Shown here: piece by piece, positions 3,518 to 23,353 of the stretch
How the letters are laid out: each line of letters starts with the position of its first letter
How positions within the stretch are numbered: the first letter of the stretch is position 1
DNA from: Verrucomicrobiia bacterium
GTDB taxonomy: Bacteria; Verrucomicrobiota; Verrucomicrobiia; Limisphaerales; UBA1319
Assembly (NCBI GenBank): GCA_963664225.1
Contig: OY760937.1
Span: 1,599,236 to 1,663,235 of the forward strand
DNA length: 64,000 bases
Reading direction: 5' to 3'
Made by a program: the position numbers and the translations under genes
Notes under the pieces: generated by a model
Told to the model about the DNA's origin: nothing
The model's database searches: none
The model's input: only the letters and a program-made list of their open reading frames with translations

Positions 3518-3522
3518 TCACA

Positions 3523-3551: not shown

Positions 3552-3579
3552 TTGCCCCATCAGGCAAAGAGAGCCGTCT
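3551..3579 (+). promoter_or_regulatory. copy 3 of the repeated intergenic motif
   Basis: Sequence CTTGCCCcatcagGCAAAgagagcCGTCT lies 81 nt upstream of the ardC ATG. Confidence 0.4.
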
Positions 3580-3659
3580 TTGGCGAAACAGCCGCATGCC
3601 ATACGCTACAGAGTGGGTTCAAATGGTTCTTTTAAAATCAACAACCACAGGAAGATATC

Positions 3660-5195: not shown

Positions 5196-5207
5196 CTAAA
5201 GCCATCC

Positions 5208-5239
5208 AAACCCCGTCCATTTTTAGGCCGGGGTTTTTC
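5208..5239 (+). terminator. rho-independent terminator
   Basis: Stem AAACCCCG (5208-5215) pairs with CGGGGTTT (5229-5236), followed by a T-run. Confidence 0.7.
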
Positions 5240-5425
5240 ATACTCACAGTAACCAATCACTTCGTCTGTGATACGGATTTTATTCCCAATACCACTGAAG
5301 TTCACAAATAAATTGACATTCGGAAATCGTCATGAAATATATCGCTGACATCCGGTAATTCAATGGGTAACCAATCCCAATCTGTGCATGAAGTTTATGC
5401 ACCAAAAAAAAGGAAGGGAAAAACT

Positions 5426-5896: not shown

Positions 5897-5914
5897 ATCA
5901 GGGGAAGGACGATT

Positions 5915-6637: not shown

Positions 6638-6643
6638 CGTCAT

Positions 6644-9600
6644 ATGTCCCGGCTCGACGAGCAATTGAGCGAACGGTTCCACCTCTGGGAACTGCGCGGA
6701 CGTGGCTGGCAGGTCTTTCCCGAACCGGTGTATCCCGAGCCGCCTTTTACCCCGTTTCTCGGCCATTATCTCCCCGATACCCCGCCAGTTGATGACGGAG
6801 CCAGGCCAACCTTTTTGAGTTCGCTGGTGCGGAAACTGAGCCGCACGTTAAGCACCGAGACTCCACCGATTGCGGTTGCGCCCGAGCCCGAAATTGAACC
6901 GGAGCCAACGCCCCTCATTCGTGAATCGCTTGTGGAATTGCAGGCATCCCTCCCGGACAAACTCGACATCTCCAAGGATGCTTTTGAACAGTTCCTTTTG
7001 AATCTGTCCCTCTGTCGCGAACCCATTGCCTTTGAACTGCTTGGCACGCACAAAAAAGTCACAACCCAATTCGTCGCCGGTGCAACTGACGCCCCGCTCC
7101 TCCGCCGACAGTTGCAGGCATATTTTCCTGAAGCCGTCTTTGTCTCCCGTGAAGGTGGCTTGGAACAGGCTTTGAATGCAAGCCAGGGCGACGAGGTTTT
7201 AGCGGTGGAGTTTGGCCTTAAAGAAGAATTCATGCTGCCTTTGGCAAGCGGCAAGCTTGATCCATTCATCGGCATCGTGGGTGCCTTGGCTGAGTTGCAG
7301 CCCGGAGAACTCGGACTTTTCCAAGTCCTGTTTCAACCGGTGCAGCATCCCTGGGCGGAAAGCATCCTGTATTCCGTGACTCACGCGGACGGCAAACCGT
7401 ATTTCATCAATTCTCCAGAACTGGCAGGGGCAGCCAATGCCAAGGTTGCCCGTCCCCTTTACGCTGCCGTTGTCCGCATCCTGCTTCGCACCGGGGACTA
7501 TGATCGTTTGCTCCAATTAGCCCGTGATCTGGCCGGATCATTGCGCGTATTCGCGCACCCCAGCGGCAACGAACTCATCCCGCTTCACAATGATGATTAC
7601 CCTTTCGAGGACCACATTGAAGACGTGCTTCGTCGTCAGACGCACAGGACAGGCATGCTACTCAACACCGACGAACTCATCGGCTTTGTCCACCTGCCAT
7701 CAAGCGCCGTCCGTTCACCGGTCTTTGAGCGGCAAGCGGTCAAATCCAAGGCGGCACCGGCCATTACCCGGCAACAAGGGCTATTGCTTGGTCATAACGA
7801 CCATGCCGGCCAGACGGTTGAAGTCAGGTTGTCCGCTGAACAGCGCACCCGGCATACGCATATCATCGGTGCCAGCGGCACAGGCAAGTCCACACTGCTT
7901 TTCAATCTCATCCGGCAGGACATTGAGAACGGTGAAGGCGTGGCCGTCCTTGATCCTCACGGGGACTTGATAGACCGGATTTGTGGCATCATTCCGCCGG
8001 AGCGGATTTGCGACGTGGTGTTGCTTGATCCTTCGGACGAATCAAATTCGGTTGGATTCAATATCCTGTCGGCTCACAGCGATCTTGAGAAAAACCTGCT
8101 GGCCTCTGACTTGGTTGCCGTGTTCCAACGCCTCTCGTCTTCATGGGGCGACCAGATGAACAGCGTGCTCTCAAACGCCATTCTCGCGTTTCTGGAAAGC
8201 GACCGGCGTGGCACCATCGCTGATTTGCGCCGGTTCCTCATTGAAACGCCGTTTCGGAATGAGTTCCTCAAATCAGTGAAGGATTCCGAGATCGTATATT
8301 ACTGGCAGAAAAGTTTTCCGCATCTCTCCGGCAACAAATCCATCGGTTCCATCCTGACCCGCTTGGACACCTTTCTGGCCCAAAAGCCCATCCGGCTCAT
8401 GGTCTCACAGCCAGAGAACCGGCTGGACTTCGCGCATATCATGGACAGCGGGAAAATCTTCCTGGCCAAATTGCCAGAGGGATTGCTTGGCCGGGAAAAT
8501 TCGTATCTGCTTGGCACCCTCCTCGTGTCCAAGTTCCAGCAGATTGCCATGAGTCGCCAGGCCCAACAGATCGCCGCGCGCCGCGACTACTGGCTCTATA
8601 TCGACGAGTTTGCCAATTTCATCACGCCCTCAATGGCGGAGATATTGTCGGGAGCACGCAAGTATAGGATTGGGCTTACGTTGGCCCATCACGAATTACA
8701 CCAGTTACAGAGGAATCCCGAAGTTGCCAGTGCTGTCATGTCGCATCCCTACACCCGCATCGTGTTCCGGGTTGGCGACGACGATGCCAAAAAACTGGCC
8801 GAGGGATTCTCATATTTCGAGGCCAGGGATTTGCGGAACTTGGAGGCCGGGCAGGCCATTGTTCGCGTGGAACGCAGCGATTTTGATTTCAATTTGTCGG
8901 TCCCGCTTCCAGTCGAGCCAGACAGGGACACAGCCATCCTCAGACGACAGGAAATCATTACCGTTTCAAGAAAAACGTACGGCACACCACGCGCCGACGT
9001 TGAGGCGATGTTCGCAAAATCGCATGAGAGTAAGACAACGATTGAACCCTCCATTGAAGCCCCTGCGCCAGCACCGACCAAGCCGGTCGCCAAAACACCG
9101 AAAGCGACCATAATTCCAGAGGCAGCAGCAGCGCCACCGCCCCCTGTTGTGATCCAGCCGCCACCAGTTACGGAAAAACCGAAAGCGATGGCATCGCCAG
9201 TCAAGGTTGAGACCCAACCTCCGGTTGTTAACCGTCCACAGGAAACACGCGATCTGGGCCGGGGCGGAGCGCAGCATCAGGCCATACAGAAACGCATCAA
9301 AGAGGCGGCGGAGAAACTTGGTTTCCGCAGCGTCATTGAAAAACCGATTCTCGGTGGTCAGGGCAGTATCGATTTGTGGCTGGAACGCCCTGGCCAAACC
9401 ATCGCCTGCGAAGTTTCCATTTCCACCACCATTGACCATGAGGTTGGCAATGTCGCGAAAGGTCTGAAGGCTGGAGTCCTCAACGTGGCGGTAATTTGCC
9501 TGGATGAAGAGCGTTTGCGGAAGATCGAGGCGGCGGTTTCCGGCAGTCTTGGCCCTGAACTCGCGGCACAAGTGGTGTATTTCCAGCCCGATTCGTTTAT

Positions 9601-9790
9601 CGCCCATTTGAAATCGTTACCGCTGCCGGTCCCCAAGGATTCCACAACCATTCGTCGGGGGTATAAAATACGACGCTCGGCACCGGCGCTTACCGCCGAG
9701 GAACAAAAGCAACGCGAAGACCTGGCCAATCAAATGATGGCCGAGGCTATGCAGCAGAAGCGCAAGGCTCATTCAAAGAAGATTCAATAA
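6644..9790 (+). CDS. large FtsK/HerA/T4CP-like ATPase with unknown N-domain, Pro-rich linker and C-terminal nuclease-like domain
   Basis: Walker A GASGTGKST, DPHGDL, Walker B YWLYIDEFANF and ARKYRIGLTLAHHELHQL. It has no TM segment. The Pro/Ala-rich linker runs ~9050-9245. The C-terminal GGAQHQAIQKRIKEAAEKLGF..IDLWLERPGQTIACEVSIST resembles a PD-(D/E)xK/CoiA-like core. It starts 6 nt after the previous stop. Confidence 0.85.
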   Translation: MSRLDEQLSERFHLWELRGRGWQVFPEPVYPEPPFTPFLGHYLPDTPPVDDGARPTFLSSLVRKLSRTLSTETPPIAVAPEPEIEPEPTPLIRESLVELQASLPDKLDISKDAFEQFLLNLSLCREPIAFELLGTHKKVTTQFVAGATDAPLLRRQLQAYFPEAVFVSREGGLEQALNASQGDEVLAVEFGLKEEFMLPLASGKLDPFIGIVGALAELQPGELGLFQVLFQPVQHPWAESILYSVTHADGKPYFINSPELAGAANAKVARPLYAAVVRILLRTGDYDRLLQLARDLAGSLRVFAHPSGNELIPLHNDDYPFEDHIEDVLRRQTHRTGMLLNTDELIGFVHLPSSAVRSPVFERQAVKSKAAPAITRQQGLLLGHNDHAGQTVEVRLSAEQRTRHTHIIGASGTGKSTLLFNLIRQDIENGEGVAVLDPHGDLIDRICGIIPPERICDVVLLDPSDESNSVGFNILSAHSDLEKNLLASDLVAVFQRLSSSWGDQMNSVLSNAILAFLESDRRGTIADLRRFLIETPFRNEFLKSVKDSEIVYYWQKSFPHLSGNKSIGSILTRLDTFLAQKPIRLMVSQPENRLDFAHIMDSGKIFLAKLPEGLLGRENSYLLGTLLVSKFQQIAMSRQAQQIAARRDYWLYIDEFANFITPSMAEILSGARKYRIGLTLAHHELHQLQRNPEVASAVMSHPYTRIVFRVGDDDAKKLAEGFSYFEARDLRNLEAGQAIVRVERSDFDFNLSVPLPVEPDRDTAILRRQEIITVSRKTYGTPRADVEAMFAKSHESKTTIEPSIEAPAPAPTKPVAKTPKATIIPEAAAAPPPPVVIQPPPVTEKPKAMASPVKVETQPPVVNRPQETRDLGRGGAQHQAIQKRIKEAAEKLGFRSVIEKPILGGQGSIDLWLERPGQTIACEVSISTTIDHEVGNVAKGLKAGVLNVAVICLDEERLRKIEAAVSGSLGPELAAQVVYFQPDSFIAHLKSLPLPVPKDSTTIRRGYKIRRSAPALTAEEQKQREDLANQMMAEAMQQKRKAHSKKIQ

Positions 9791-10217
9791 AGGCTGCAAA
9801 ATCTTGATTTTGCAGCAGTTTGACTGAGGTCCAAACTGCGTTTGGAATGGGCAGGGAGAAAAACATTTTCACATCCCGTCGCAAGCCGTCCTGTTTGGCC
9901 AGAAGTTCGTCCTGAATGGCTTCATGCACACTGTTTGTGTGGGAAATGACCATGGTGACGAACAACTTTTCCTCTGGCGTGACGGGCTGGCTTTCCAAAT
10001 CCACTGACGGATCGAGTACGCGGGCCAGTTTTGGTTGATGGAGGAATTCTTTCCATACATCACGGTAATTAGCGGTGATGGCCAGGAGATTGGCAATTCG
10101 ACGGGTCTTGGTTTCCGAATGAAGTGAGACAGCCGTAAACAAAAGGCTGCCGACAATGCCGACTGTGCTTAATAGATCGAACCAATTTTGAACAACCCAT
10201 TGTCCCATGTCCCCCAT
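9747..10217 (-). CDS. hypothetical protein with N-terminal TM helix
   Basis: Likely start is MGDMGQWVVQNWFDLLSTVGIVGSLLFTAVSL (ATG at 10217 or 10208). Its 3' end overlaps the convergent ATPase ORF by 44 nt. It may be DUF4760-like (unverified). Confidence 0.5.
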   Translation of the reverse strand: MGDMGQWVVQNWFDLLSTVGIVGSLLFTAVSLHSETKTRRIANLLAITANYRDVWKEFLHQPKLARVLDPSVDLESQPVTPEEKLFVTMVISHTNSVHEAIQDELLAKQDGLRRDVKMFFSLPIPNAVWTSVKLLQNQDFAAFIESSLNEPCASAA

Positions 10218-10242
10218 TTTAGCATATGGGGGCCAGGAAACG

Positions 10243-10488
10243 CTATGGACGGTCGGGGATATCGTGCTTGGCGTTGACCAAGAGATTGCGCGGCAACCGG
10301 ATGATTCGTTCATCGGGACCACAGCCCGCCGTTCGTGGCAATTTGGCGATGGCAGCAGCCGTGATGTCGATACCGATCACTGCGAAATCGCCATTTTCAA
10401 GTTCCCAAATATCTGGGCAACCCCAGCAGCCAACCGTTTGGGCACCGTTGGCATGAGGGTCTGGGCCAATGCGTTTCTTAAAGTTCAT
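10243..10488 (-). CDS. hypothetical small protein (81 aa)
   Basis: The ATG at 10488 has a strong RBS (ggaggt). Sequence MNFKKRIGPDPHANGAQTVGCWGCPDIWELENGDFAVIG... No family name was recalled with confidence. Confidence 0.6.
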   Translation of the reverse strand: MNFKKRIGPDPHANGAQTVGCWGCPDIWELENGDFAVIGIDITAAAIAKLPRTAGCGPDERIIRLPRNLLVNAKHDIPDRP

Positions 10489-10500
10489 ACCTCCACTATA

Positions 10501-10527
10501 CTTGACTATAGTAAAGTAACTGTCAAG
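10501..10527. promoter_or_regulatory. palindromic candidate operator in a divergent promoter region
   Basis: CTTGAC-N15-GTCAAG lies between the divergent starts at 10488 (-) and 10552 (+). Confidence 0.4.
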
Positions 10528-10551
10528 CCGCATTTTGGATAAAGTTCAAAT

Positions 10552-10809
10552 GTGCCAAAAATCGGCCATTACGAAGCCGTCAGTGCGGAGATCATTCGCC
10601 TTTTGCGTGAGGAGCGCGAAACGCGCAAGATCACGAACTATATGGTCGCGCAGAAATCCGGCGTTTCTGAATCCATGTTAAGCCTTGTGGATCGAGGACT
10701 TCGGAATCCTTCCATGGAAATCATTTTACGGATCGCTGATGCCGTCGAAGCAGATCTTCCTGCCTTGATCAAAAAAGCCCATACCACCGTTTCGAGCAAA
10801 GAAAAGTGA
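10552..10809 (+). CDS. XRE-family helix-turn-helix regulator
   Basis: HTH motif ITNYMVAQKSGVSESMLSLVDRGLRNPSMEIILRIADAV. GTG start. Confidence 0.8.
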   Translation: MPKIGHYEAVSAEIIRLLREERETRKITNYMVAQKSGVSESMLSLVDRGLRNPSMEIILRIADAVEADLPALIKKAHTTVSSKEK

Positions 10810-10838
10810 GCTGTTTTCAGATCGAATCGCTCTACGTT

Positions 10839-11063
10839 TCAATTTGGAATAACGGGCCTGACGTTTTGGCATCTGAACATTTCAATGATCTTGATGCGCA
10901 GTTTGGTGAGGCTCAAAAACGGATATTCCTCAGCTTGATGAATGGCGCTCTTGGTAACACCCAGTTGCCGTGCAACTTCTGCTTTAGATATGCGCGCCTG
11001 TATTCGGGCTGCCTTTGCCAAGGATGCCAGTTCATTCTCTTCCAACAATCGTTTTTGCCGCAC
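10839..11063 (-). CDS. small HTH (XRE-like) DNA-binding protein, start uncertain
   Basis: HTH motif LAKAARIQARISKAEVARQLGVTKSAIHQAEE. The ORF is open up to 11201, but that would overlap the recombinase start. A GTG at 11063 gives a typical ~75-aa protein. Confidence 0.55.
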   Translation of the reverse strand: MRQKRLLEENELASLAKAARIQARISKAEVARQLGVTKSAIHQAEEYPFLSLTKLRIKIIEMFRCQNVRPVIPN

Positions 11064-11145
11064 GAACCGATTCAACCACAATGGGTAACGCGAGGAAATG
11101 CTATTCTCTTGAAACGAGATTGGCTTTTCAATATGAAGTAGTGCT

Positions 11146-12648
11146 ATGAAGGACCATAGTGCCTTGAATAAACCGGTGGGCATCTGGATTCGCGTTTCCA
11201 CAGAGGATCAAGCCCAAGGTGAGAGCCCGCAACATCACGAGTCTCGTGCCAGAGAATACGCCAAATTCAACGACTGGTCGGTGAAAGAGGTTTACAATCT
11301 CGCGGGCGTCTCAGGCAAGACGGTCATGGAGCATCCCGAAGCCAAACGAATGCTCGCTGATATAAAGCGAGGCCACATCACCGGCCTCATTTTTTCCAAA
11401 CTCGCCCGTCTGGCAAGAAACACCAGGGAGCTCTTGGATTTCGCTGATTTCTTCCGTGAGCAGCATGCCGATATGATCTCGATCCAAGAAAAGATCGATA
11501 CGAGCACCCCTGCCGGTCGCCTTTTTTACACAATGATCGCCGCTCTCTCTCAGTGGGAACGGGAAGAAATTGCGGATCGGGTCAAAGCATCAATCAAAAC
11601 GCGAGCTAAACTTGGGAAAAGTTTGGGTGGCCCTGCCCCATTTGGTTATATGTGGAAGAATAACAGGCTCATTCCTGATCCTGCCGAAGTGCCAATCCGC
11701 AAACTCATGTATGAACTCTTTGCGGAACAGAAACGTCTTAAAGGCGTCGCTCGCCACTTGAACCAATCTGGTTATAGAACCAGAAAAGGTGCCCACTTCA
11801 CGGATACGACCGTTCTGCGACTCATCCAAGACTCAACCGCCAAAGGAATATATCGGGCAAACCACACTTACAGGGACAACAAGGGTAAACTCCGTACAAA
11901 ACCTGAATCCGATTGGATTCAAACACCTGTAGAACCAATCATTTCAATAGAGCTTTGGGATCAATGCAATGAATTGCTGGAAAAGCGCAAAACCATGCGT
12001 CCCCTTGGCCCTAAACCAGTCCACCTTTTTGCTGGTCTTCTGTATTGTGGCTGCGGTCAGAAAATGTATGTGTTTTCGCGTACGCTAAAATACATCTGCC
12101 ACAAATGCCGCAACAAGATCCCCATGGAAGACATTGAGGCAATTTTCCGGGAGGAGCTTGAAGATTTCTTTGTATCAAAAGAAAAAATCACAGCTCACTT
12201 GGCGAGTGGCAACGTTCACCTTGCCGACAAGAAAGAGCGGCTGATGGTCCATGAACGACAATTGGAAAAGATCAGAGTGGAAATGCGCAAAGTTTACCAA
12301 CTCTACCAAAATGATCAAATTGACCCCGAAGGCTTCGGAAAACTGTATCGCCCATTGGAAGACCAAGAACGATCGCTTGGTATTGAATTAGCGAAATTAC
12401 AGGGCGAGCTGGCAGCCCTCCAAATGCACCAATTGTCTGCCGACGAAGTGATCACCGAAGCCATCGATCTTCACCGACAATGGCCAAAGTTCACTCAAAA
12501 TGAAAAACGCCGAATCATCGAAAGTATCACTGAAAAGATTGTAGTGAGCGGCGACGAAATAAACATAACCCTCTGCTATATGCCATCTTGTGAAGAACTC
12601 ACAAAAAGGCAACGAAACCTCTGGGATTCATCGCCGCAATCAGCATGA
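11146..12648 (+). CDS. large serine recombinase (integrase)
   Basis: Resolvase catalytic domain [12 protein letters not shown]...[13 protein letters not shown]. Also a recombinase domain, a Cys-rich zinc ribbon ([15 protein letters not shown]) and a coiled-coil region. The last 8 codons and the stop lie in comM-derived DNA. Confidence 0.9.
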
Positions 12649-13675
12649 ATTGTGATGGGAATGTCATGGACCCCGCGGCGCGCGAAATGGTGACGCACCC
12701 CTCTTCCAAAGGCTGACGCAAGGTCTCCAGAACGTTGCGTTTGAACTCCGGCAATTCGTCCAAAAAGAGCACGCCATGATGCGCGATGGAAATTTCCCCG
12801 GGCGTCGGATTGATGTTGCCTCCGAGCAATCCGGCATCGCTGACCGTATGATGGGGGGCTCGAAAAGGACGCTTGGTAAGCAACGCCTGTCCCGGCGGAA
12901 GGATGCCCACGATGCTGTGAATCTTGGTCGTCTCCAGGGCTTCCTCCAGCGTCAACGGCGGCAGTATGGACGGCAGCCGCTTGGTCAACATCGATTTGCC
13001 CGTCCCCGGCGGCCCAATGAGAAGCGCGTTATGCCCGCCTGCGGCGGCGATTTCCAGGGCGCGCTTCACCGATTCCTGCCCTTTCACATCCGCAAAATCC
13101 AATTCATCTTCCACCGGTTGGGCGAAGAGCGCGGCGATATCCACACGCGTGGGCGGAATTTGGAGACGCCCCTCGAGAAACTCCGCAGCCTCGCGCAAGT
13201 TGTGAACGCCAATCACACACAACCCCTCCACCACCGCCGCTTCGAGCGCATTTTCAGCGGGCACCAACACCCCGGCCTTGCCTTCAGCCCGCGCGCGCAG
13301 CGCCACTGGCAGAACCCCCTTGACCGCGCGCACGCCACCCGTCAGCGCCAGTTCACCCACAATCGCGAAATTCTCCAACTGGTCCGTCTCGATTTGTTCG
13401 CTCGCGGAAAGCAGGCCCAGGGCAATGGGCAGATCGAAGCTCGGACCCTCCTTCTTCACATCGGCGGGCGCCAGGTTGATCGTGATCCGCCCCATCGGAA
13501 ACGTGAACCCGGAATTGGCCATTGCAGTCGCCACCCGATCCCGCGATTCCTTCACCGCGGCATCAGGCAGCCCTACAATCACCACCAGGGTATCACCAAA
13601 GCCCGCATTGACCTCCACCTCTATGGGATAGGCGTCAATACCGGCCAGCGCCGCCGAACAAACCTTGGCCAACAT
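12599..13675 (-). pseudogene. comM: comM/yifB (Mg-chelatase-like ATPase), 5' ~350 codons only, interrupted by the mobile element
   Basis: [22 protein letters not shown]..., Lon-protease-like N-domain, Walker [20 protein letters not shown] and FMLIAAMNP. The frame then runs into unrelated RGFVAFL* where homologues continue with CPCG. Confidence 0.85.
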
Positions 13676-13731
13676 GGAAAAGATTTATGCGCAAACCCAA
13701 GCCCTTGCGCAATGGAATAATGGCGTAGGCC
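13575..13731 (-). repeat. comM 5'-end repeat, copy A (resident copy: leader + first ~33 codons)
   Basis: 149/157 nt identical to 19104..19260 by manual alignment. Includes the upstream palindrome GCGCAAAccc...TTGCGC. Confidence 0.85.
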
Positions 13732-13892
13732 CGAGCGTAGGACGCATGAATACGGCCTGCCCAGAGAAATTAAGCGCGCGTTCTGTCACTCTCGTCCCGC
13801 GAGGCACGAGCGGGAGAGTGGGATCCGTGGCCGACGACAGAGCAATCAGTATAGGACCTCGGTCCGCTCGATGGTCTGATTAGGCGTTTTCA

Positions 13893-14627
13893 TTATTCGG
13901 CATCCGGGGCGGTCTGTTGGAGGCGCTTTAGGTCCTGAAGTTCCACCGGGTCATTTACATAACCATTATTGAACCAGGAGACTGGCGCCGGTCCTTTCCA
14001 CTTCCAGTATTCCGCATGGTTATCGGCAAAAACCAGCACGCAGCCGTGCTGGTGCCGTCGAGCCGGGAGGTCCATCCATACGTCCATTTTGGAGGCATAC
14101 AGAAGACCGCCATTGTTGATTCCGTTCTCATCCTCATCGAGAAAAGTGAGGGTCTTCGATGGATGTCGTATCTCGCTGAATTTCGCCAGCGGAAAAACCA
14201 TGTAGTTGCTCACGCAGTCGTCTCCCGCCATGTAGATGCTCAACGACACGCTACGCAGCCTGGGTGTGCTGGTATCCTCGACGCACGTATGGTCGGATGG
14301 GCAACGGTAAATTTGGAGCGACTGCGCGTACGGGAAGAGCGTGCCCTTTTTGATCGTTGTCGGATCCGCGTCATGGGTGGCACTGCCGGTGACCCAGCTG
14401 CCGACCGGGCTGCGGTGGACGCCGGTGTCAACGCTGTCCAGGTTGAGCGCCAGCCGGTCGGCGTTGTCTGGGGCATAAAGCGTCCATGCCAGTCCAAGCT
14501 GTCGTTGATTGCTGAGGCATTTGGTTCTGGCGGCTTGTCCTTTTGCCGATGATAACGCGGGCAGCAGCAATGACGCCAGGATGGCTATGATCGCAATGAC
14601 CACAAGCAGTTCAACCAGGGTAAAACC
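13893..14627 (-). other. prepilin-type N-terminal cleavage/methylation motif plus DUF1559-like domain embedded in the 966-aa ORF (could be a separate gene starting at ATG 14723)
   Basis: The G of GFTLVELL is encoded at 14625-14627. An in-frame ATG at 14721-14723 (MVLDSTHSG...) lies 32 codons upstream. No stop separates it from the sigma/TM part. Confidence 0.45.
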
Positions 14628-16793
14628 AGGGTCCGAACGGATGCCGGTGCCACGCGAAAACGTCGGCGGGCGGGTTTGCGACGGTAGCGGCTTCGCGCCA
14701 GAGTGGGTGGAATCGAGTACCATATCGTTCCCGGACCCGGGATGCGTGATGGGGGATTCAGGCCGGTTTTTTACCGCCCAGAAAAACAGGATTCCGGCGC
14801 CAGTCGTTAATGCGAGGATCCACAGCGCAGTGATGGACGCACTTGGTCCCGGGAGACCGTCCGCCTCGGCTACGTAAGTTTGGTAAGTGATGTTCTGGCG
14901 GGTCAACTCTCCCAGGGTGAATTCGTTCGCGGGCGCAATGAAGTCCGGAGTGCGAAGGTCGGAGATCCACAGTTTTCTGGAACCATCCATATACTCGAAC
15001 ACTTCGAATCGGGCGTTTTTGTGCCGGGCGACGATGCCCGGTACGCGATCGGCGGAGATGGTGCGCACCTTCCAGTCCATGGTTACCCCCAGAAAAACGG
15101 CCAGTGCGACCATTCCGCACGCGGCCAATGCGGCAAAAGCTTTATCCACACGATGTTCATTAATCAGGTCCGTGGCGGAGAGCGGTCCGGATTGGCGATC
15201 ATGACTTCCGCGCAACAATGTCACCGCGCCAGCCACGAGGATGAACCAGCAGAATGGAATCAGCAGCCACACGGACCACCACCCTGGACGCGTCATGCTG
15301 AGCAGGGGCGCATCCCGGTTTTCAACCTGCGTCTCATGGCTGATTCCCTTCTCGGCCAGCAAGGCCATCGTGGTGTTCTCTGCCGGAGCGACGAACGGGG
15401 TCACCTTCCTATTCTCCAGCAGATCACCATGGAGCGTGCGGACTCCTCTGGCATTTTGGAGCAGCTTAAAGCGGAATTTCCCCACCTGCGAATCGGCGAT
15501 ACGGCTTTGTATTTCACTGGTGGACATGTAGCGAGGTACCGGAAAGTGCGTGGAAGAAATGCGACTGGACGCCCAGCAGAAAAGGCCCAAATAAAAGAGA
15601 GCCACTGTCATGGCCGTCATCGCCCAGGCAGTGATGAATTTTGGAGATGGTCTGGAGATGGAACCGTCTTTAACCCCTTCAGGAACGGTTCGACATCTTC
15701 GTTGCCAAATCCAGATGCCAAGGGATAGCGGCACCACCCCAAACATAAAGATCGGCAGACAGACGTTCAGCCAAATATTCAACGTTATTAAGCCTCTGGC
15801 CGCGGATAGACCGGTCACTTTGGCGAGCGAGACCGTCCCTAGCGGAAGGAGACAAAAGAAAAAGGACATGCTGATTCCCATATTGCGCCAAAAAGTGGCT
15901 ACAGACCGACGCGCCCGCTCACTATTCCGACTATCCCCTCCCATTTTAAATCCAATGTATCCACCTAAGGACAAAGCCGCGACAACCCAGCCAATCATGC
16001 CCATGACAAAATTGGCAACGGTTTGCAGAAACCCGACGGAGCTCGTTGTCTTGGCGGCCACGCTACCATGTTGCGCCAGCGCCGTGCCGGCCGTCGCCGC
16101 CTTGGCGGTCGTGGCCAGCAGGGGCAGAGCCGCAATCACTCCGAACGTGAAGTCCTTGCCCGGACGGGTTTGCTTCAACGCACCGGCGACAAACGCGAGG
16201 AATTCTTCCTGCAGGAGTTTTCGCCCGCGGGATAGTCGTTGTTTTACCGCATCCTCGCTGAGACCTAAATCCTGCGCCACGGCCCCGATGGATTGTTGTT
16301 CGCGATAGAACAACACCAACGGCTCGCGATAAATTTCCGGGATGCGTTCGAGCGAGCGCCAAAGAATCGCCTTTTCCTCGTCGCTGATGACTTGATCGAA
16401 AGGCAGCGGTTCTGGTGAGACCCATTCGTCCATTGCCTCCAGAGATTCAGCGGCATGATCCGGCTCCCGTCCCTGGCGTCGAAACTCTTTGCTGATAAGC
16501 GAACGCGCAATGCTGCACAGCCAGGGCCGCAACTTGGATGGTTCACGCAATTCTGAAAGCTGCTTCCAGGCCGCCACAAAGGTCTCCTGGGCCAGGTCTT
16601 CGCTCCGGCTCACGTCACCAGTGGCACAGTACGCCAGCGACGAAATCAAGATTTGATAGCGTTCAACAATCAGCCGGAAGTGATCCCGATTCCCGCTCAG
16701 GCTCTCGGCCACTAGCTCGGCGTCGTTGATATCTCCCCTCTGCATCGCTTCGCTCGTCATCATATCACCCTGTAAGAACCCGAAAAGCCTCAT
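13893..16793 (-). CDS. chimeric ORF: ECF sigma-70 domain + multi-TM (anti-sigma-like) region + embedded prepilin-type/DUF1559-like domain
   Basis: Sigma region 2 ([14 protein letters not shown]) and region 4 ([39 protein letters not shown]). These are followed by many hydrophobic helices. The pilin-like motif [25 protein letters not shown] sits 244 aa from the C-terminus. The frame is uninterrupted for 966 codons. Confidence 0.7.
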
Positions 16794-16825
16794 GAGGTGA
16801 CAAACAATCGAAGAATCCGCTCCCT

Positions 16826-17005
16826 GGAAAACGCGAACCCGGAATTGGCCATCGCGGTCGCCACCCGATCCCGCGCTTCCTTCACCGCGGCATCAGGCAG
16901 CCCCACAATCACCACCAGGGTATCTCCAAAGCCCGCATTGACCTCGACTTCAATCGGACAGGCATCGACGCCGTTCACAGCGGCGGAAAAAACCCGGGCT
17001 AACAT
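16826..17005 (-). repeat. comM 5'-end repeat, copy B (diverged; first ~59 codons only)
   Basis: [59 protein letters not shown] matches resident ComM at 51 of 59 residues. Upstream DNA is unrelated to copies A and C. The frame ends in a TGA that overlaps the ATG at 16793. Confidence 0.8.
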
Positions 17006-17326
17006 AGGGGCGATTCTGGGGAAAAGCAGGGATTCGGAAAGGACAAAGTAGCAGGCGGGGGATGGCCACAAAAATGCACAAATGGTGCAAGAAATAAGAG
17101 GAATGCAAAGGAACCCAGAAAAGCGAGGGTTCAGTCGCTGGGAAAAACGCCCGACGCCATGGTCCAACCTTGTTCCCATATCCCACTTGCCTGCTTGTTC
17201 TGGGAGTTCTGAACAACCCTAACTGGTGAACTTTAGCATACATCAAAAACGAGGACACTTGCTTGAATCCGACAAAGGGCTCGGTATTCTTCCGGTTGGT
17301 GCGGCCTTACTAGCCGCCAGAACAAA

Positions 17327-18982
17327 TTGAAATTCATGATGCTGAATAAAATCAAATTAAACGTGCTGGTCGGGAAGAGTGTATTGGCCCGGCTTGCCGG
17401 TATTCTCTTGATGGCCCTCGTCCTCGCCTCCGTCGCGTCTCATCCCCTTGCGGCGGAACAGGCGCATCCTGCCCATAATCCCATTACCTGGGCCGATGTT
17501 CCGGACATCGCAATGATCCGTGTAGGAAAAACCTATTACATGAGCAGCACGACGATGCACATGAGCCCGGGCCTCCCGATCATGAAGTCGGCGGACCTGG
17601 TCAACTGGAGTATGGCCTCCTACGCCTATGAAACCCTCGCCGACAACGAAGCCCTCCGCCTCGAAAACGGCAAAAACGCCTACGGTCAGGGCTCCTGGGC
17701 CAGCAGCCTGCGTTTCCACGACGGCGTATTCTATGCCTCGACTTTCTCCGCCACCAGCGGACGCACTCACATCTACAGCACGCGCGATCCGGAGCGCGGC
17801 CCGTGGAAAGCGACGAGTTTCGAGCCCTTGCTGGGTGACCACAGCCTGTTTTTCGACGACGATGGTCGCGTTTACATGGTTTACGGGGGCGGTCGCATCA
17901 GGCTCACCGAGCTGCAACCCGATCTCTCCGGAATCAAGCCCGGTGGCGTGAACAAGGTCATCGTCGAAAACGTCAACGCCCTCTTCGGCGCCGACCAGGG
18001 TGGGCTCAAGGGCGAGGGCTCGCAGCTTTTCAAGATCAATGGCCGCTACTACCTCTTCAACATCGCCTCGCCCGGGAGCCGCTGGGCGCGCACCGTCATC
18101 GTCCACCGCGCCGACTCAATCAACGGTCCCTACGAGGGTCGCATCGCGCTCGATGATCGCGGTATCGCCCAGGGCGGCCTCATCGACACCCCGGAAGGCA
18201 AATGGTATGCCTATCTTTTCAAGGACAACGACGCCGTCGGTCGCATCCCCTACCTCGTGCCGGTGACTTGGAAGGACGGCTGGCCCGTTCTCGGTGAAAA
18301 CGGCAAGGCGCCCATGACGCTCGACATCCCCGCCGGCGGACAAGGCGTCTCCGGTGTCTCCGGCATCGTCGCCTCTGACGAATTCGACCGCGAGCCCGGC
18401 ACCCTCGACCTGCCCCTCGCCTGGCAATGGAATCACAATCCCGAGTCTCGTTTCTGGTCGCTCGCCAAGCGCCCGGGGTACCTGAGCTTCGTCACCAGCC
18501 GGATCGTTTCCACTCTGCCCGAGGCCCCGAATACTCTCACCCAGCGCACCTTTGGCCCTCGCAGTTCCGCCACCACCAGCATCGACGTGAGCGGCATGAA
18601 GGACGGCGACTACGCCGGCATCGCCGCATTTCAGAAACGCTATGGTTTTGTGGGCGTAAAGATGAGCGACGGCGCCAGATCTCTCGTCATGGTGAGTGCC
18701 GACTCCGACAAACCCGAGGAAATCGCCTCCGTTCCCCTCACTGGCAAAACAGTTCACCTCAAGGTCGAATGCGAATTTCAGCCCGCGCCTGAAGTCGCGC
18801 ACTTCTCCTACAGCCTCGACGGCAAATCCTGGACACCCCTCGGTCGTCCCTCGCGCCTTTCCTACACCGTGCCGCACTTCATGGGTTATCGCTTCGCCCT
18901 CTTCTATTATTCGACCAAGACTCCCGGCGGCCGTGTGGACTTTGACTACTACCGAGTCGGGCAAAGCGGCGACTCACTCTGA
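17327..18982 (+). CDS. glycoside hydrolase family 43-like protein (beta-xylosidase/arabinofuranosidase type) with signal peptide
   Basis: NPITWADVPDIAMIRVGKTYYMSSTTMHMSPGLPIMKSADLVNW, five-bladed-propeller-type repeats, and a C-terminal lectin-like domain. The N-terminus is a hydrophobic signal. Confidence 0.8.
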   Translation: MKFMMLNKIKLNVLVGKSVLARLAGILLMALVLASVASHPLAAEQAHPAHNPITWADVPDIAMIRVGKTYYMSSTTMHMSPGLPIMKSADLVNWSMASYAYETLADNEALRLENGKNAYGQGSWASSLRFHDGVFYASTFSATSGRTHIYSTRDPERGPWKATSFEPLLGDHSLFFDDDGRVYMVYGGGRIRLTELQPDLSGIKPGGVNKVIVENVNALFGADQGGLKGEGSQLFKINGRYYLFNIASPGSRWARTVIVHRADSINGPYEGRIALDDRGIAQGGLIDTPEGKWYAYLFKDNDAVGRIPYLVPVTWKDGWPVLGENGKAPMTLDIPAGGQGVSGVSGIVASDEFDREPGTLDLPLAWQWNHNPESRFWSLAKRPGYLSFVTSRIVSTLPEAPNTLTQRTFGPRSSATTSIDVSGMKDGDYAGIAAFQKRYGFVGVKMSDGARSLVMVSADSDKPEEIASVPLTGKTVHLKVECEFQPAPEVAHFSYSLDGKSWTPLGRPSRLSYTVPHFMGYRFALFYYSTKTPGGRVDFDYYRVGQSGDSL

Positions 18983-19103
18983 CCTTCGCCTTTCCTTTTC
19001 AAGGGTCGTGGAAGGGTCTGGAAGAGTTGGTCCGACAAACGACAATTTGGAATGGATTTGCGGAATGTCGCTGCAGTGAATTTGGTGGGGGTATATCGGC
19101 ACG

Positions 19104-19260
19104 ACAATGACCACCAGGGTATCACCGAAGCCCGCATTGACCTCCACCTCGATGGGATAGGCGTCAATACCGGCCAGCGCCGCCGAACAAACCTTGGCCA
19201 ACATGGAAACGATTTATGCGCAAACCCGCGCCTTTGCGCAATGGAATAATGGCGCAGGCC
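19104..19260 (-). repeat. comM 5'-end repeat, copy C (leader + first ~33 codons, then truncated)
   Basis: ATG at 19204. [34 protein letters not shown] then diverges. Has the same upstream palindrome as copy A. Confidence 0.85.
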
Positions 19261-19370
19261 TTCTCCCATTTCGCGGTTTAAAAATCCGCGTTCCTCTGCA
19301 GTCCGGCAATCATCCCGCTTAATCCTGTCATCCTGTCTCATTTTCTTCGCGGCTTCACGTGCGTCCGTCC

Positions 19371-20096
19371 CTACCCGCCACACCCCAAATCCACCACATG
19401 CGCGCCCGGAACCTTCGCATCAATGATCCACCGCGCTAGATTCGTCCAACGCGAACACCGATCCAGTATCACGCTATCCGAAGTGGCGACGCCATGACTC
19501 GTCTCACACAAAACCTTGTCGGGGCTGAAAACCAATTCCACCTCCCAGTGCCAGCCCATGCGCCCCGCCAAATCTAGGAGAACGCGCTTGAGCCGACCGC
19601 TGTTGGACACCGGGCTGTCCAGCCACCAGCGGCACGTGGCAATTTCCCACGCGGCCAGAGTTTCACCCAGCATACGCAAGGCGGGCATGGTTTCTTCCAC
19701 CGGTCGATATCCGCCGTGCGTGCCAGCCATATCCCGATAACACCCATCGCGCCCCCGCAGGATCACCCCGCCAGCCATCGCGGACTCAAGGATGTTCAGG
19801 ATATTATAGCCATCCAGCCAGAGCTCGCCGTTGCGGATTTGCGCGGGCGCAACCTCATGCTGCTGACGCCGCAGCAACATTGCATCCGAACAGACACAGC
19901 GGCCCACTGCAATCCGCTGCCGACGTATCAGCTCGTAGCGATTGCCCACCAATTCCAGCGAAGAAGCCAGCGCATAACCGTGATTCAGCAGCCAGCATAA
20001 ATCCCCCGCCGCCTGGCGCATGACGCCACAGGCTTCCGGGGCGAATAGCCGGGCATCCTCCGGGTCCGGCCCGCGATGTCGCCGTTTTTCGGGCAT
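19371..20096 (-). CDS. DUF434-like protein with C-terminal NYN/YacP-like putative nuclease domain
   Basis: Likely start is MPEKRRHRGPDPEDARLF. GDLCWLLNHGYALASSLELVGNRYELIRRQR is DUF434-like (from memory). WLDGYNILNILE resembles the (V/L)DGYN motif of NYN/YacP domains. Confidence 0.6.
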   Translation of the reverse strand: MPEKRRHRGPDPEDARLFAPEACGVMRQAAGDLCWLLNHGYALASSLELVGNRYELIRRQRIAVGRCVCSDAMLLRRQQHEVAPAQIRNGELWLDGYNILNILESAMAGGVILRGRDGCYRDMAGTHGGYRPVEETMPALRMLGETLAAWEIATCRWWLDSPVSNSGRLKRVLLDLAGRMGWHWEVELVFSPDKVLCETSHGVATSDSVILDRCSRWTNLARWIIDAKVPGAHVVDLGCGG

Positions 20097-20256: not shown

Positions 20257-21480
20257 TCATTCCAAGGTCGCCTTCTGCTCGGTCTGGATGAATTCCTCGT
20301 TGTCCTCGTAGGCGGTCCTTCTGGAACCCGTCGCGCGGATGATATACCCGGACACCAGCCCGCCCGTCAGCGCCAGGACAAGCGTCGTGCCGATTCCAAC
20401 CAGTTGAGCCTTTGCGATGCCTGGAACAACCAGCACCGCCACCAGTCCGCCGAAGAGTCCCGGCATTCCGTGCAGGTTATGCACTCCGCAGGTGTCCACA
20501 ATGCGAAACGTGTTTTTGATTTTGCCCTGCACCACCGCGTAGCCAAAAACACACAGCAGCCCCGCCAGCGCTCCGATCCCCAGAGCCGTGGGGGCGCTGA
20601 CCATGTTGCAGGTGGCGCCAATCGAAACACCGCCCGCCAGCGCCGCATTGGCGATGTCGCCGATCATGACCTTGCCTTTATTAAACACCGCGCTGAAAAC
20701 GCAGGTGGAGATCGTGGCCCCGCACAAGGCGAAAACAGTGTTCACGGCCGTGGCGGCCACTTGTTCCGGCGGAACAACCGCGCAGCAAAAGCTCGGCCAG
20801 AACAACCAGAGCACCATGGAGCCAATCATGGAAAAACGATTCGAGGTGGCGTCGCCGGGTATTTCCTTTTCCAGGTGGTTCGCCTGCGTCAACGCCACGG
20901 CCAGTCCCAGTCCAAAATAGGCCCCAAACGCATGAATGATGATCGATCCGGCGGAATCCACAAAACCCCTGGTGATGCCCAACCCCCCGTCCAGCACCAG
21001 CCACTCGTTGAGCATATAGAACGGCACAAGCAACAACGCCAGCAGCCCGTATTGATGCAGCCGCACCCGTCCCAGCACCGCCCCGGTCGCGATCAACGCC
21101 GAGGCCACGGCAAATTCAGCCAGCAGCAAGCCCTTGATGCTCTGCATCGGCACCACTTCCGCCGTCAGCACCCCCATCGACCTCAGAATAAAATAGACCG
21201 GCAATCCCACCGACGTCACCAGAAACGTGCCCGTCGTGGCGCTGTATCCGTAGTTCCTCACGAACACCATGAGAAAACCGAACCCGACCAGCAGCATGGC
21301 CAGGATGTGAATCGCAAAATTGTATTGCTGCACCTCGCGCAACGCCGTGGCCGCGCTGACCGCCGCCGGGGCCTCAGCCATTCCAAGAACGGGCATCAGC
21401 AGCAGGCCTGTCAGGACGCACTTACTCAGCCTGTTAAAATTGGACCTTCTGGCGGGTTGAGAAGCGGGATTTATGTCCAT
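20257..21480 (-). CDS. ammonium transporter, Rh-like (Amt/MEP/Rh family)
   Basis: About 11-12 TM segments. IHAFGAYFGLGLAVAL and GVHNLHGMPGLFGGL are Rh50-type signatures. The likely start is the ATG at 21480 (MDINPASQ...). Confidence 0.85.
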   Translation of the reverse strand: MDINPASQPARRSNFNRLSKCVLTGLLLMPVLGMAEAPAAVSAATALREVQQYNFAIHILAMLLVGFGFLMVFVRNYGYSATTGTFLVTSVGLPVYFILRSMGVLTAEVVPMQSIKGLLLAEFAVASALIATGAVLGRVRLHQYGLLALLLVPFYMLNEWLVLDGGLGITRGFVDSAGSIIIHAFGAYFGLGLAVALTQANHLEKEIPGDATSNRFSMIGSMVLWLFWPSFCCAVVPPEQVAATAVNTVFALCGATISTCVFSAVFNKGKVMIGDIANAALAGGVSIGATCNMVSAPTALGIGALAGLLCVFGYAVVQGKIKNTFRIVDTCGVHNLHGMPGLFGGLVAVLVVPGIAKAQLVGIGTTLVLALTGGLVSGYIIRATGSRRTAYEDNEEFIQTEQKATLE

Positions 21481-21712
21481 GCAATGGAATGGGGTGGAGC
21501 TGCGCCGAAACACGCCACAGTTCGTGGTGCGGCGATGCAGCCTGGATTTTGTGAATGCGGTAATGAGCTGTGAGTTTTCATATCCACCGCACAAAGTCAA
21601 GCCCAGCCTGCGCTGAATGGAATATCAAAAAGAAGCAATAAGGCAAAAAATAACAAGGACGTTGCTTTTTTTCTTGCATGTAAACGGCATGTTCATCTTA
21701 GATGAAACCATC

Positions 21713-23353
21713 ATGGCTGCAAAGACTCGTTTTGTTAATTTGGACGCAATGATTCCGAGGGCTGACTTTGCCTTAGAACCAAACAACTCCGTAAGCGGCA
21801 ACACAAGTTTCCATTCAATTTCTGTGAAAGATTTGCAGACAGGAGGCCTGATCCGCCCCACTCTTCGCAAACCAGACTTCCAGAGGGAAACAAATCATTG
21901 GTCACCAGAACAGGTAGTTTCCTTGCTCGAGTGCTTTTTCAATGGTGACCTGATTCCATCGGTCATCGTCTGGAAATCGCCAACATATCTTTTTGTCATA
22001 GACGGAGGGCATCGGCTAAGCGCGATCAGGGCATGGATTGAGGATGACTATGGCGACGGACCAGTGTCTCGTTCATTCTTTGGCGACGCAATTTCGAAAG
22101 AGCAAAAAGCCACTGCTGCAAAAACCCGCGATTTAATTGCGAAAGGAATCGGAAAGTGGCAGCACATCCAGTCGAGTATGGAAAATCCTAGTCTGGATGA
22201 TACAGAACGCCGACGGATTTTGCCAGTTGTATCGCGAGCAATCCCAGTCCAATGGGTTGAGGGTAATGCGGAAAAGGCTGAAGCCTCTTTCTTCAAAATT
22301 AACACACAAGGCACTGCACTGGACGATATTGAGGAACTCTTGCTTTCCAACAGAAGGAAACCAATTGCTATAGCGTCTCGAGCCGTGATTCGAGCAGGAA
22401 TGGGACATCGCTACTGGTCACGTTTTTCACATCCCGTCCCTGAACAAATTGAGGAATTGGCGAAGAAAATTCATTCTACACTCTTCCAACCAGAGGCCGA
22501 AACACCGACTAAAACCTTAGACCTTCCGCTTGGTGGCCCAACAGGGGTGCGCGCCGCGCTACAAATACTAATTGAGTGTGCTCTTGCTGCCAACAGGGAC
22601 CAAAGCGGCAATCCGAAGAAACTGAAGGATCAAGCAGACGACGATACCGGTGATGCAACCAAAGAGACCCTTTCTCGCATGCTTGGTTTGGCACATCGGA
22701 TGACTGGCAATGACAAGGGAAGCCTGGGACTTTATCCAGCAATATATTTTTATGGTCCAACAGGACGCCACCTAAGTCCCATGTTTCTAGGCGTTGTTCT
22801 ATTGCTAAGCCGGAAGATGATCAATAACGATAAGGCCTTTTTCTCGAATTTCACAAACGTTCGCGGCAAGCTCGAGAATATTCTGATAGAGCACAAAGAT
22901 CTCATCGCTACAATCCTCCAAAAGACAATCAGCAGCAAGCGAGTCGTCACCTACGCAGATTTGCTAAATACCCTTGTCGAGAAACTAAACGCCGATGCTT
23001 GCGGGGTAATAAAGGAGTCGGATCTTGTTTCTTTTGCGGGGCTAAATGGCAAAATCATTACAGGGACCTCAGAAGACGTCAGCGCAAGATTCTCTGATGA
23101 TATAAAGAGTGCGGTGTTTATCAAAACCGCACTAAAATCAGCAATCAAATGTCCTATTTGCGATGGTTATTTAGACACAACAAAGTCTGTCTCTTACGAT
23201 CACATTACCGAAAAGGCTATAGGTGGTAAGGGAGACGAACAGAATTGTCAGCTGACACACCCGTATTGCAATCAGTCTGTCAAAAATGGAGTCTTTCAGG
23301 CTGCCATCCCATTCCATCTTGAACAGCCCGTGTCCTCGGTGGAAGATGTTTAA
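21713..23353 (+). CDS. DUF262/ParB-like nuclease domain protein with C-terminal HNH motif (GmrSD-like)
   Basis: KPDFQRETNHWSPEQVVSLL...FVIDGGHRLSAIRAWI and FFKINTQGTALDDIE are DUF262/DGQHR-like. The C-terminal CPICDGYL..YDHITEKAIGGKGDEQNCQLTHPYCNQSVK is HNH-like. The ORF is open from 21617, with alternative ATGs at 21689 and 21713. It is visibly AT-richer than the flanks. Confidence 0.75.
   Translation: MAAKTRFVNLDAMIPRADFALEPNNSVSGNTSFHSISVKDLQTGGLIRPTLRKPDFQRETNHWSPEQVVSLLECFFNGDLIPSVIVWKSPTYLFVIDGGHRLSAIRAWIEDDYGDGPVSRSFFGDAISKEQKATAAKTRDLIAKGIGKWQHIQSSMENPSLDDTERRRILPVVSRAIPVQWVEGNAEKAEASFFKINTQGTALDDIEELLLSNRRKPIAIASRAVIRAGMGHRYWSRFSHPVPEQIEELAKKIHSTLFQPEAETPTKTLDLPLGGPTGVRAALQILIECALAANRDQSGNPKKLKDQADDDTGDATKETLSRMLGLAHRMTGNDKGSLGLYPAIYFYGPTGRHLSPMFLGVVLLLSRKMINNDKAFFSNFTNVRGKLENILIEHKDLIATILQKTISSKRVVTYADLLNTLVEKLNADACGVIKESDLVSFAGLNGKIITGTSEDVSARFSDDIKSAVFIKTALKSAIKCPICDGYLDTTKSVSYDHITEKAIGGKGDEQNCQLTHPYCNQSVKNGVFQAAIPFHLEQPVSSVEDV

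Follow-up and report, generated by a model that had tools for sequence, protein, structure and literature searches.

Probable fusion of an extracytoplasmic function sigma factor–membrane protein gene with its coupled prepilin-type neighbour in a Limisphaerales bacterium

The minus strand of the 64,000-nucleotide (nt) window analysed here (contig OY760937.1 of a Limisphaerales Verrucomicrobiia bacterium, assembly GCA_963664225.1, positions 1,599,236 to 1,663,235) carries an uninterrupted frame of 966 codons, 13893–16793, identified in the open reading frame (ORF) listing of the 64-kb window. A first-pass annotation had described this frame as a chimera of an extracytoplasmic function (ECF) sigma domain, a membrane region and an internal type IV prepilin-like signal, and the ORF listing, Pfam and hydropathy analysis uphold that layout (Table 1). 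Regions 2 and 4 of the sigma domain were both recovered as originally read; the matches to Sigma70_r2, Sigma70_r4_2 and N_methyl all exceed the curated Pfam cut-offs, and TIGR02937 (sigma70-ECF) scored 76.9 bits for the 966-amino acid (aa) protein against a cut-off of 42.9. No match to sigma region 1 or 3 was found in it with Pfam, and the protein is an ECF (group 4) sigma-70 factor, the top Foldseek matches being SigW, AlgU and sigma-E. No equivalog or subfamily model reached its cut-off, so the protein is assigned to no curated ECF subgroup; TIGR02989 (the Rhodopirellula/Verrucomicrobium ECF family) gave 71 bits, below its cut-off of 124.55. The window also encodes a second ECF sigma factor with a large extension (25658–28150, minus strand, 830 aa), with Sigma70_r2/r4 and DUF5122 beta-propeller repeats.

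Behind the sigma domain lie eight transmembrane (TM) helices within aa 215–674, and the pilin-like part adds a helix at aa 726–744 (19-residue hydropathy scan). The helices predicted by AlphaFold2 (AF2) match those derived from hydropathy, which bears out the many TM helices noted earlier. Two similar soluble modules had also been pointed out between the helices, and they are indeed related: they are 27% identical over 55 aa by BLASTP and share an identical predicted order of helices and strands, with a predicted local distance difference test (pLDDT) score of about 90 in both. Neither the TM region nor the modules matched a Pfam or NCBIfam family above threshold, and Foldseek returned no PDB match for the modules at E ≤ 1e-3, its weak matches being to FtsHi (8xqw_C, E = 8e-3) and to the periplasmic domain of T. 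maritima FtsH (4q0f_C, probability 0.75, TM-score 0.46). The first helix, TM1, is almost invariant across the family of proteins with this sigma domain and these eight helices (hereafter sigma-8TM) and is rich in Ala, Gly and Pro. A site-2 protease (Peptidase M50) identity for the TM region was rejected, the match being sub-threshold (E = 0.055) and the HExxH motif missing. No anti-sigma domain of the ZAS, RskA or FecR type was found in aa 205–680 with Pfam and NCBIfam, and the gap between the end of sigma region 4 (about aa 197) and the beginning of TM1 (aa 215) is too short to hold one.

The distribution of positive charge gives the region a predicted orientation. Loops 281–304, 363–385, 527–551 and 675–725 carry 6, 6, 4 and 6 Lys + Arg residues respectively, and the short loops on the opposite side carry one Lys or Arg each. 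Given a cytoplasmic sigma domain, the Lys/Arg-rich loops are predicted to lie inside and the short loops and both modules outside, with the N and C termini of the sigma-8TM protein both predicted to be cytoplasmic. The linker that follows TM8 is disordered in the AF2 model (pLDDT <50), and the predicted topology puts the prepilin-type site at its end, G723|F724, on the cytoplasmic face.

That site belongs to a prepilin-type cleavage/methylation motif whose presence inside the ORF, as first claimed, was confirmed by PF07963 (N_methyl, aa 722–743, 29.5 bits against a cut-off of 21.2) and by TIGR02532 (32.3 bits against 16.3). The motif reads ...RSDPG723|F724TLVE728LLVV... and its internal position stands; the 244 residues once counted to the C-terminus become 243 after the Gly. 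It has the Gly(-1), Phe(+1) and Glu(+5) of a class III signal and a helix running to about aa 746 (about 21 hydrophobic residues). It does not sit at the N-terminus behind a short leader: 723 residues, including eight TM helices, precede the cleavage site, and the leader would be 33 aa long if translation began at M691. The proposed likeness of the downstream domain to DUF1559 held only in part. PF07596 (DUF1559) stayed below threshold in the window protein (E = 0.044, 14.2 bits against 23.3) and TIGR04294 (H-X9-DG) was absent from its NCBIfam matches at E ≤ 1, but an H-X9-D motif is present and some relatives match PF07596 or bear the source name "H-X9-DG protein", both of which hint at the H-X9-DG group. 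The H and D of this motif are invariant in 18 homologues, and P0150 has H-X9-DG.

A search with the pilin-like part returned many standalone proteins of 275–276 aa that align with the full query, including the 33-aa stretch M691–G723, at 76–78% identity, and 31 of 105 standalone homologues are annotated with a leader of 32–33 aa that begins at the Met equivalent to M691. Among the window ORFs scanned with Pfam there was no peptidase A24 match, most window ORFs lying outside that scan. Another prepilin-type gene of the window, at 57009–58058 on the plus strand, lies directly after a 1660-aa BspA-type leucine-rich repeat protein (52016–56998), and its H-X9-DG motif (HNDRGNISFMDG) is canonical. 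Its open frame runs 97 codons upstream of the G|F site, and its start is possibly the Val codon in ..SDVRSPQ.., if that codon is GTG.

A search with the whole protein yielded more than 100 proteins of about 680 aa that cover the sigma and membrane parts only, the closest being 76–80% identical and all labelled Verrucomicrobiota or Verrucomicrobia where named. An exhaustive search of 1.84 billion proteins with the membrane region (E ≤ 1e-3) showed it to be rare, with 144 cluster representatives, and nearly every full-length match aligns from around residue 195, right after the sigma domain. Judging by these alignments, the sigma domain and the membrane region are a single gene unit. A separate anti-sigma gene as fusion partner was rejected on this ground, since the two parts always occur in one gene.

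The gene arrangement was surveyed at 79 loci, 68 of them from a metagenome scan that used an alignment (largely of peat and bog samples) and the remainder fetched earlier. Separate sigma-8TM and pilin-like genes were found at 22 loci and fused ones at four; at 34 of the 79 a pilin-like gene was absent within 600 nt. The two-gene loci come mostly from peat metagenomes, with one from a Limisphaerales metagenome-assembled genome, and pair a sigma-8TM gene of about 680 aa with a pilin-like gene of about 275 aa; locus L001, for example, has a 680-aa gene and then an N_methyl-protein gene on the same strand. The unfused sigma-8TM proteins stop about 18 aa past TM8. At 20 of these 22 loci the sigma-8TM TGA overlaps the pilin ATG as ATATGA or GTATGA, placing the pilin gene in the -1 frame, and the in-frame ATG at 14723 to which attention had been drawn at the outset is the counterpart of this start (M691). 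In L070/L071 the sigma-8TM and pilin-like ORFs share a frame with a single TGA between them, one mutation away from fusion. More distant family members vary at the C-terminus: P0244 and P0255 bear three periplasmic modules, and P0251, P0266, P0278 and P0279 have another TM-anchored C-terminal extension, with a sub-threshold GNVR match in one of them, P0251. The family therefore appears to gain periplasmic parts readily at its cytoplasmic C-terminus.

Comparison with 10 distinct relatives located the lesion that joined the frames in the window. A run of C on the minus strand reads AATCCCCCATCA in the window and TTTCCCCATCA in the relatives, and this is the sole length difference in the junction DNA. 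The extra C brings the sigma-8TM gene into the frame of the pilin gene 12 codons ahead of the ancestral stop; in a three-frame comparison the window keeps the sigma-8TM frame as far as ...FWAVKNRP and then follows the pilin frame of L001 and L007 (...FPIMHPKPGNDMRFLS...). From this comparison it appears that the extra C joined the two frames in this genome, that the old stop has been lost since the merger, together with the proximal Met of some relatives (LMSSRV, the called start of P0146 and P0147; Thr in the window), and that the former 33-aa leader peptide now serves as linker. The first-pass annotation had suggested a stop lost between an anti-sigma gene and a pilin-like gene, with 14630–14760 as the region to examine. 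The lesion and the old stop both lie in that region, and the fusion and the stop loss stand, joined by the change from four to five C; the anti-sigma gene does not, given that sigma and polytopic region form one gene in all relatives. Programmed frameshifting was rejected: no slippery site occurs at the junction of the unfused relatives, and the window ORF can be read without any shift.

Were the fifth C a sequencing or assembly error, the genome would carry two ordinary genes. The lesion is an indel in a homopolymer, separate loci number 22 against four fused ones, and the genome of the window is absent from the searched protein collection, which leaves no independent copy for comparison. We nevertheless regard an error as improbable. 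With four Cs, the sigma-8TM frame would still miss the ancestral stop and extend 47 codons into the pilin gene. Since the old TGA is now TGG and the frame runs on, restoring the shorter run would not recover the ancestral layout, and it is chiefly on this ground that we take the fusion to be biological and not of very recent origin. A prior merger of the frames would account more readily for the loss of both the stop and the proximal Met, and fused forms occur in other assemblies, one of them on contigs from separate sequencing runs.

Four proteins are fused in the same manner as that of the window (P0001, P0002, P0003 and P0006). P0001 was found on three contigs, which derive from two or more sequencing runs, and continues without a change of frame into a G+C-rich linker unlike that of the window; P0003 has another linker, similar to the in-frame, single-stop layout of L070/L071; and in P0002 and P0006 the linker is short and common to both (RAGP...SKHA|FTL). 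The last two are 68% identical over 772 aa despite the same junction, so at least one fused lineage seems to have persisted through a long divergence, its two halves both conserved. All fused forms retain [GA] at -1, F at +1 and E at +5. In a neighbour-joining tree of the membrane part they are scattered among unfused proteins, and the nearest relatives of the window protein are all unfused. The distinct junctions by themselves point to three or more fusion events, and junctions other than that of the window are found in at least three other lineages. Inspection of orthologues for an intervening stop codon, proposed at the outset as a check on the fusion, thus gave a divided answer: most are split into two genes, but several independent fused forms exist, one of them long-lived. 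Several separate origins of this join among related Verrucomicrobia from peat bogs suggest, on these sequence comparisons, that the two proteins work together. A further protein, P0157 (385 aa, on a partial contig), is a deletion variant that passes straight from the residues behind TM6 (AVTLLRG) to the pilin leader (FISTDPGAK...) and lacks module 2 and TM7–8; its pilin leader would lie on the same cytoplasmic side, and it could be an assembly chimera.

The explanation that we consider likely is a genuine fusion of two adjacent and normally translationally coupled genes of Limisphaerales-type Verrucomicrobiota that would together form a signalling module. The first gene would encode an ECF sigma factor joined to eight TM helices with two periplasmic alpha/beta modules and without an anti-sigma domain, and the second an H-X9-D(G/N) protein of the prepilin type (G|FTLxE), with an ATG that overlaps the stop codon of the first gene. 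With a cytoplasmic linker, the pilin segment should still insert with its N-terminus inside and its C-terminus outside, so that the G|F site faces the cytoplasm, and the fusion may have been tolerated because the linker is cytoplasmic and the pilin-like part keeps its native orientation. In the module we propose, the sigma factor would be held inactive at the membrane and the pilin-like protein would be its partner or its cue, as the gene coupling and the recurrent fusions suggest. Activation would come by release, most likely through intramembrane proteolysis in the conserved TM1, whose composition lends this step indirect support.

Two fates of the fused product appear comparably likely: a prepilin peptidase would cut it into two near-native proteins, or a protein of nine TM helices would stay whole. 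The first requires that the internal class III signal be functional, with the peptidase cutting G723|F724 and the 723-residue, eight-TM sigma protein acting as the "leader peptide" of the pilin-like protein, an idea that we put forward tentatively. In the second, the fusion is real but uncleaved, and the pilin-like part has become a ninth TM helix and a third periplasmic domain, that is, a regulatory C-terminal extension. This too is a possibility to which we give limited credence. It fits the other TM-anchored extensions or third modules of distant family members, the documented growth of C-terminal extensions on sigma factors of the Planctomycetes–Verrucomicrobia–Chlamydiae (PVC) superphylum by sequestration of downstream genes (PMC7671368), and a fused state kept since the common ancestor of P0002 and P0006. 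It sits less well with the full cleavage signature in all fused forms, which may however be too young to have lost it, and with a site predicted to lie on the correct face, if a prepilin peptidase is present.

Free prepilin may also come from initiation within the ORF, at ATG 14723. Two products could then arise without any proteolysis, a normal prepilin with a 33-aa leader being made alongside the long protein; this reading, doubtful as it is, would be compatible with the fusion that we favour. The ATG and the preceding GGGAACGAT stretch have been kept from the ancestral start region, and many standalone homologues are annotated from the Met at this position. The ancestral start, however, probably needed termination and reinitiation at the ATGA, which is now impossible, and the ATG 14723 region now lies within a translated ORF.

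Several points weigh against the fused, signalling interpretation. The lesion occupies the most error-prone kind of site and is known from the assembled sequence alone, and the tree of the membrane part was built by neighbour-joining without support values. AF2 modelled the globular part of the pilin-like protein poorly (pLDDT 40–55). Distant family members lack an adjoining pilin gene, making the partnership clade-specific, and most relatives that do have a pilin neighbour keep two genes, so that fusion is not required for function. For prepilin leaders, we found only the range of 6–26 aa in the literature, in a search that was not aimed at internal signals. Cleavage behind a 723-residue "leader" and the proposed signalling steps are inferred.

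Extension of ECF sigma factors by sequestration of downstream genes is already known from Planctomycetes, where C-terminal extensions arise in this way (Pinto and da Fonseca 2020, PMC7671368). As there, the present case lies in the PVC superphylum and shows an ECF core made continuous with a downstream gene by loss of a stop or frame, with multiple independent origins. It differs in that the fusing unit is already a sigma-8TM protein and not a bare, duplicated sigma2–sigma4 core, and in that the partner is a conserved, translationally coupled neighbour, the same one repeatedly, and not a fortuitous insertion site. Membrane-tethered sigma factors with extracytoplasmic sensing parts are also known among the sigma/anti-sigma hybrids, such as those of ECF48/52/53 (e.g., SCO4117) and IutY of Pseudomonas putida (ECF243), the latter being released by regulated proteolysis through Prc/RseP (PMC8999054). 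These hybrids have a ZAS or FecR-type anti-sigma domain and one or two TM helices, whereas in the protein described here an anti-sigma domain is missing, the TM helices number eight and the modules are duplicated. They are nevertheless the nearest working models; proteolytic release is established for IutY and is an extrapolation here.

The pilin-like part shares G|FTLxE, a hydrophobic helix of about 21 residues and an H-X9-D near the C-terminus with type IV pilins and the H-X9-DG/DUF1559 proteins of the PVC superphylum, and is about 75% identical to standalone proteins bearing the latter names. Class III signals have a leader of 6–26 aa and are cut after Gly(-1) on the cytoplasmic side (PMC4471445). 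In contrast to type IV pilins, the signal here is internal, 723 residues from the annotated start, and the DUF1559 hidden Markov model stays below threshold; the 32–33 aa leader of the standalone relatives is also unusually long. Precedents for a pilin that cues membrane-embedded transcription control are PilS, which is stated in work cited in PMC6058289 to sense PilA in the inner membrane, and truncated PilA, which activates the ECF sigma factor AlgU in mucoid conversion of P. aeruginosa PAO579 (PMC3684759). The analogy is functional, with no sequence relationship to the window protein.

Three features appear new on the sequence comparisons made here: a prepilin-type partner whose class III signal becomes internal, the repeated fusion of the same coupled neighbour, and a sigma-8TM family with no Pfam or NCBIfam match outside the sigma domain. 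To our knowledge, H-X9-DG/DUF1559 prepilin-like proteins are among the most expanded families in Planctomycetes and Verrucomicrobia, and a literature search on DUF1559 found few papers that mention them. ECF sigma factors with very large extensions are equally common in these phyla and equally unexplained. The locus and its relatives tie the two groups together, and the coupling and repeated fusion of sigma-8TM with one pilin-like gene are a classic sign of physical or functional partnership. The locus is also a natural test of whether a prepilin peptidase processes an internal class III signal. Should that signal be functional, a pseudopilin of the H-X9-DG/DUF1559 type would be made and matured in a fixed 1:1 ratio with a membrane-tethered ECF sigma factor, and the recurrent fusions would become Rosetta-stone evidence that the large PVC pilin-like family signals through dedicated sigma factors. 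The window copy is probably just one recent instance, and the value of the case lies more in the family-level pattern than in this ORF.

At the other end of the ORF, the first-pass annotation had observed that a fragment of comM, designated copy B, ends in a TGA overlapping the ATG at 16793 as ATGA, and had raised the possibility of transcription and translational coupling from this leader. The overlap is present in the sequence; the coupling finds no support, and the alternative start that was also mentioned, MMTSEAM, is the better one. The homologues all start with MMTxEAM or MITTEAM, equivalent to ATG 16763 in the window, and the functional coding sequence is most likely 13893–16763 (956 codons), if that ATG is the start. 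All loci have TGTCACCT-N8-CTTTTCGGGTGCTTA-N-AGGGTGAT-ATG before the start, including one whose protein is 46% identical and others whose genomic surroundings are unrelated. This 5' element of about 40 nt was placed at 5962–5991 in L001, 3962–3991 in L006, L007, L010 and L011, and 5944–5973 in L005, and matches the window once against zero expected by chance. Homology of the window to other loci spans this element to the stop codon. Both ATG 16793 and TGA 16790 belong to the variable 8-nt spacer, in which relatives carry TTG or TTA instead, and the ATGA overlap with the comM fragment looks incidental.

The 5' element could be a translational operator or an ECF-type promoter. RNAalifold predicts a hairpin that pairs TGTCACCT with the Shine-Dalgarno (SD)-like AGGGTGAT (the 16S-tail-like TCACCT with AGGGTGA); its paired bases are nearly invariant, with no compensatory change and no covariation support. 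Rfam gave no match in 13400–19500, so the element is not a described RNA. A scan for sigma-70 promoters and terminators returned sites no more frequently than in shuffled sequence. In L022 a second TGTCACC element lies immediately 3' of the sigma-8TM stop, an arrangement suggestive of cassette-like units or of paralogues in tandem; similar QAVT(F/L)D tails are present in L023 and L020.

Table 1. Features of the fused ORF, its flanks and the integrated element in comM, in window coordinates.
Feature	Position	Strand	Basis or remark
Whole ORF with TAA stop (13893–13895)	13893..16793	-	ORF listing and sequence
Conserved 5' element TGTCACCTcatgaggCTTTTCGGGTtCTTAcAGGGTGAT	16764..16802	-	homology with unrelated loci begins here
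Likeliest true start codon (M11, MMTSEAM)	16761..16763	-	homologue starts; SD-like AGGGTGAT directly upstream
Sigma-70 region 2, aa 42–109	16467..16670	-	PF04542, 51.4 bits
Sigma-70 region 4, aa 143–194	16212..16367	-	PF08281 (Sigma70_r4_2), 40.5 bits
TM helices 1–5, aa 215–404	15582..16151	-	hydropathy, Lys/Arg distribution, invariant columns, AF2 helices
Periplasmic module 1, aa 405–507, small alpha/beta domain	15273..15581	-	pLDDT ~90, weak Foldseek match to the FtsH periplasmic domain
TM6, cytoplasmic loop, TM7, aa 508–570	15084..15272	-	hydropathy, AF2
Periplasmic module 2, aa 577–655, paralogue of module 1	14829..15065	-	BLASTP E = 1e-5, same predicted fold
TM8, aa 656–674, final helix of the ancestral sigma-8TM protein	14772..14828	-	hydropathy
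Linker, aa 675–723, Lys/Arg-rich, predicted cytoplasmic, ends in G723, mostly the former long leader peptide	14625..14771	-	
Fusion lesion, run of 5 C on the minus strand against 4 C in relatives	14751..14755	-	comparison with 10 distinct relatives
ATG (M691), ancestral stop-overlapping start of the pilin gene, possible internal start	14721..14723	-	alignment of relatives
Ancestral TGA stop of the sigma-8TM gene, now TGG	14720..14722	-	ATATGAG in relatives, ATATGGT here
Class III (prepilin-type) signal core F724-TLV-E728 and hydrophobic helix	14556..14624	-	PF07963, TIGR02532
Pilin-like periplasmic domain (predicted), aa 747–966	13896..14555	-	76–78% identical to standalone 275-aa proteins
H-X9-DN motif, aa 914–925 (H914..D924-N925)	14019..14054	-	within the pilin-like domain
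comM (YifB) 5' fragment copy B, 71-codon remnant ORF	16790..17005	-	PF13541
Replic_Relax (relaxase-like)	835–1740		element in comM
DnaG-like primase	1836–2891		element in comM
ArdC + metallopeptidase	3660–4511		element in comM
TrwB-like coupling protein	6644–9790		element in comM
Large serine recombinase	11146–12648		element in comM

Within copy B, homology to comM covers 16815–17005 and the tail of the remnant ORF enters the conserved 5' element. Its match to PF13541, the ChlI-like N-terminal domain of YifB, scores 37.7 bits; it is a fragment only, of about 58 of some 500 codons, and over 191 nt its DNA matches the 5' end of the resident comM at 85% identity. The resident comM (YifB) starts at 13675 and is interrupted after codon 358 by an integrated element, window positions 1–12648 being occupied by a conjugative or mobilisable element in comM (Table 1). 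Three copies of the comM 5' end occur on the minus strand (A, 13485–13725; B, 16815–17005; C, 19014–19255). From about -50 to +105, copies A and C hardly differ, and between them lies a 5.5-kb segment with a GH43 gene (17327–18982, plus strand), copy B and the fused ORF, and without any recombinase.

This island-like setting, with flanking comM fragments and a serine-recombinase element alongside in comM, would suit a decaying passenger, a gene pair captured between comM 5' repeats in which the frameshift was the first step of pseudogenisation, and the clustering of three lesions at the junction points the same way. We think this quite unlikely, because the 2.9 kb show neither a stop inside the frame nor another frameshift, the conserved 5' element is preserved along with every motif, and the branch leading to the window has a ratio of nonsynonymous to synonymous substitution rates (dN/dS) of 0.10 in the sigma part, 0.33 in the membrane part and 0.29 in the pilin part (three-taxon Nei-Gojobori), within the range of the unfused L001 and L007 branches and similar to functional relatives.

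Elsewhere in the window, a group II intron reverse transcriptase/maturase (RVT_1 + GIIM) is encoded at 58289–59974 on the minus strand, and a GmrSD-like restriction endonuclease (GmrSD_N + HNH; 21617–23353, plus strand) adjoins an ammonium transporter gene (20257–21600, minus strand).

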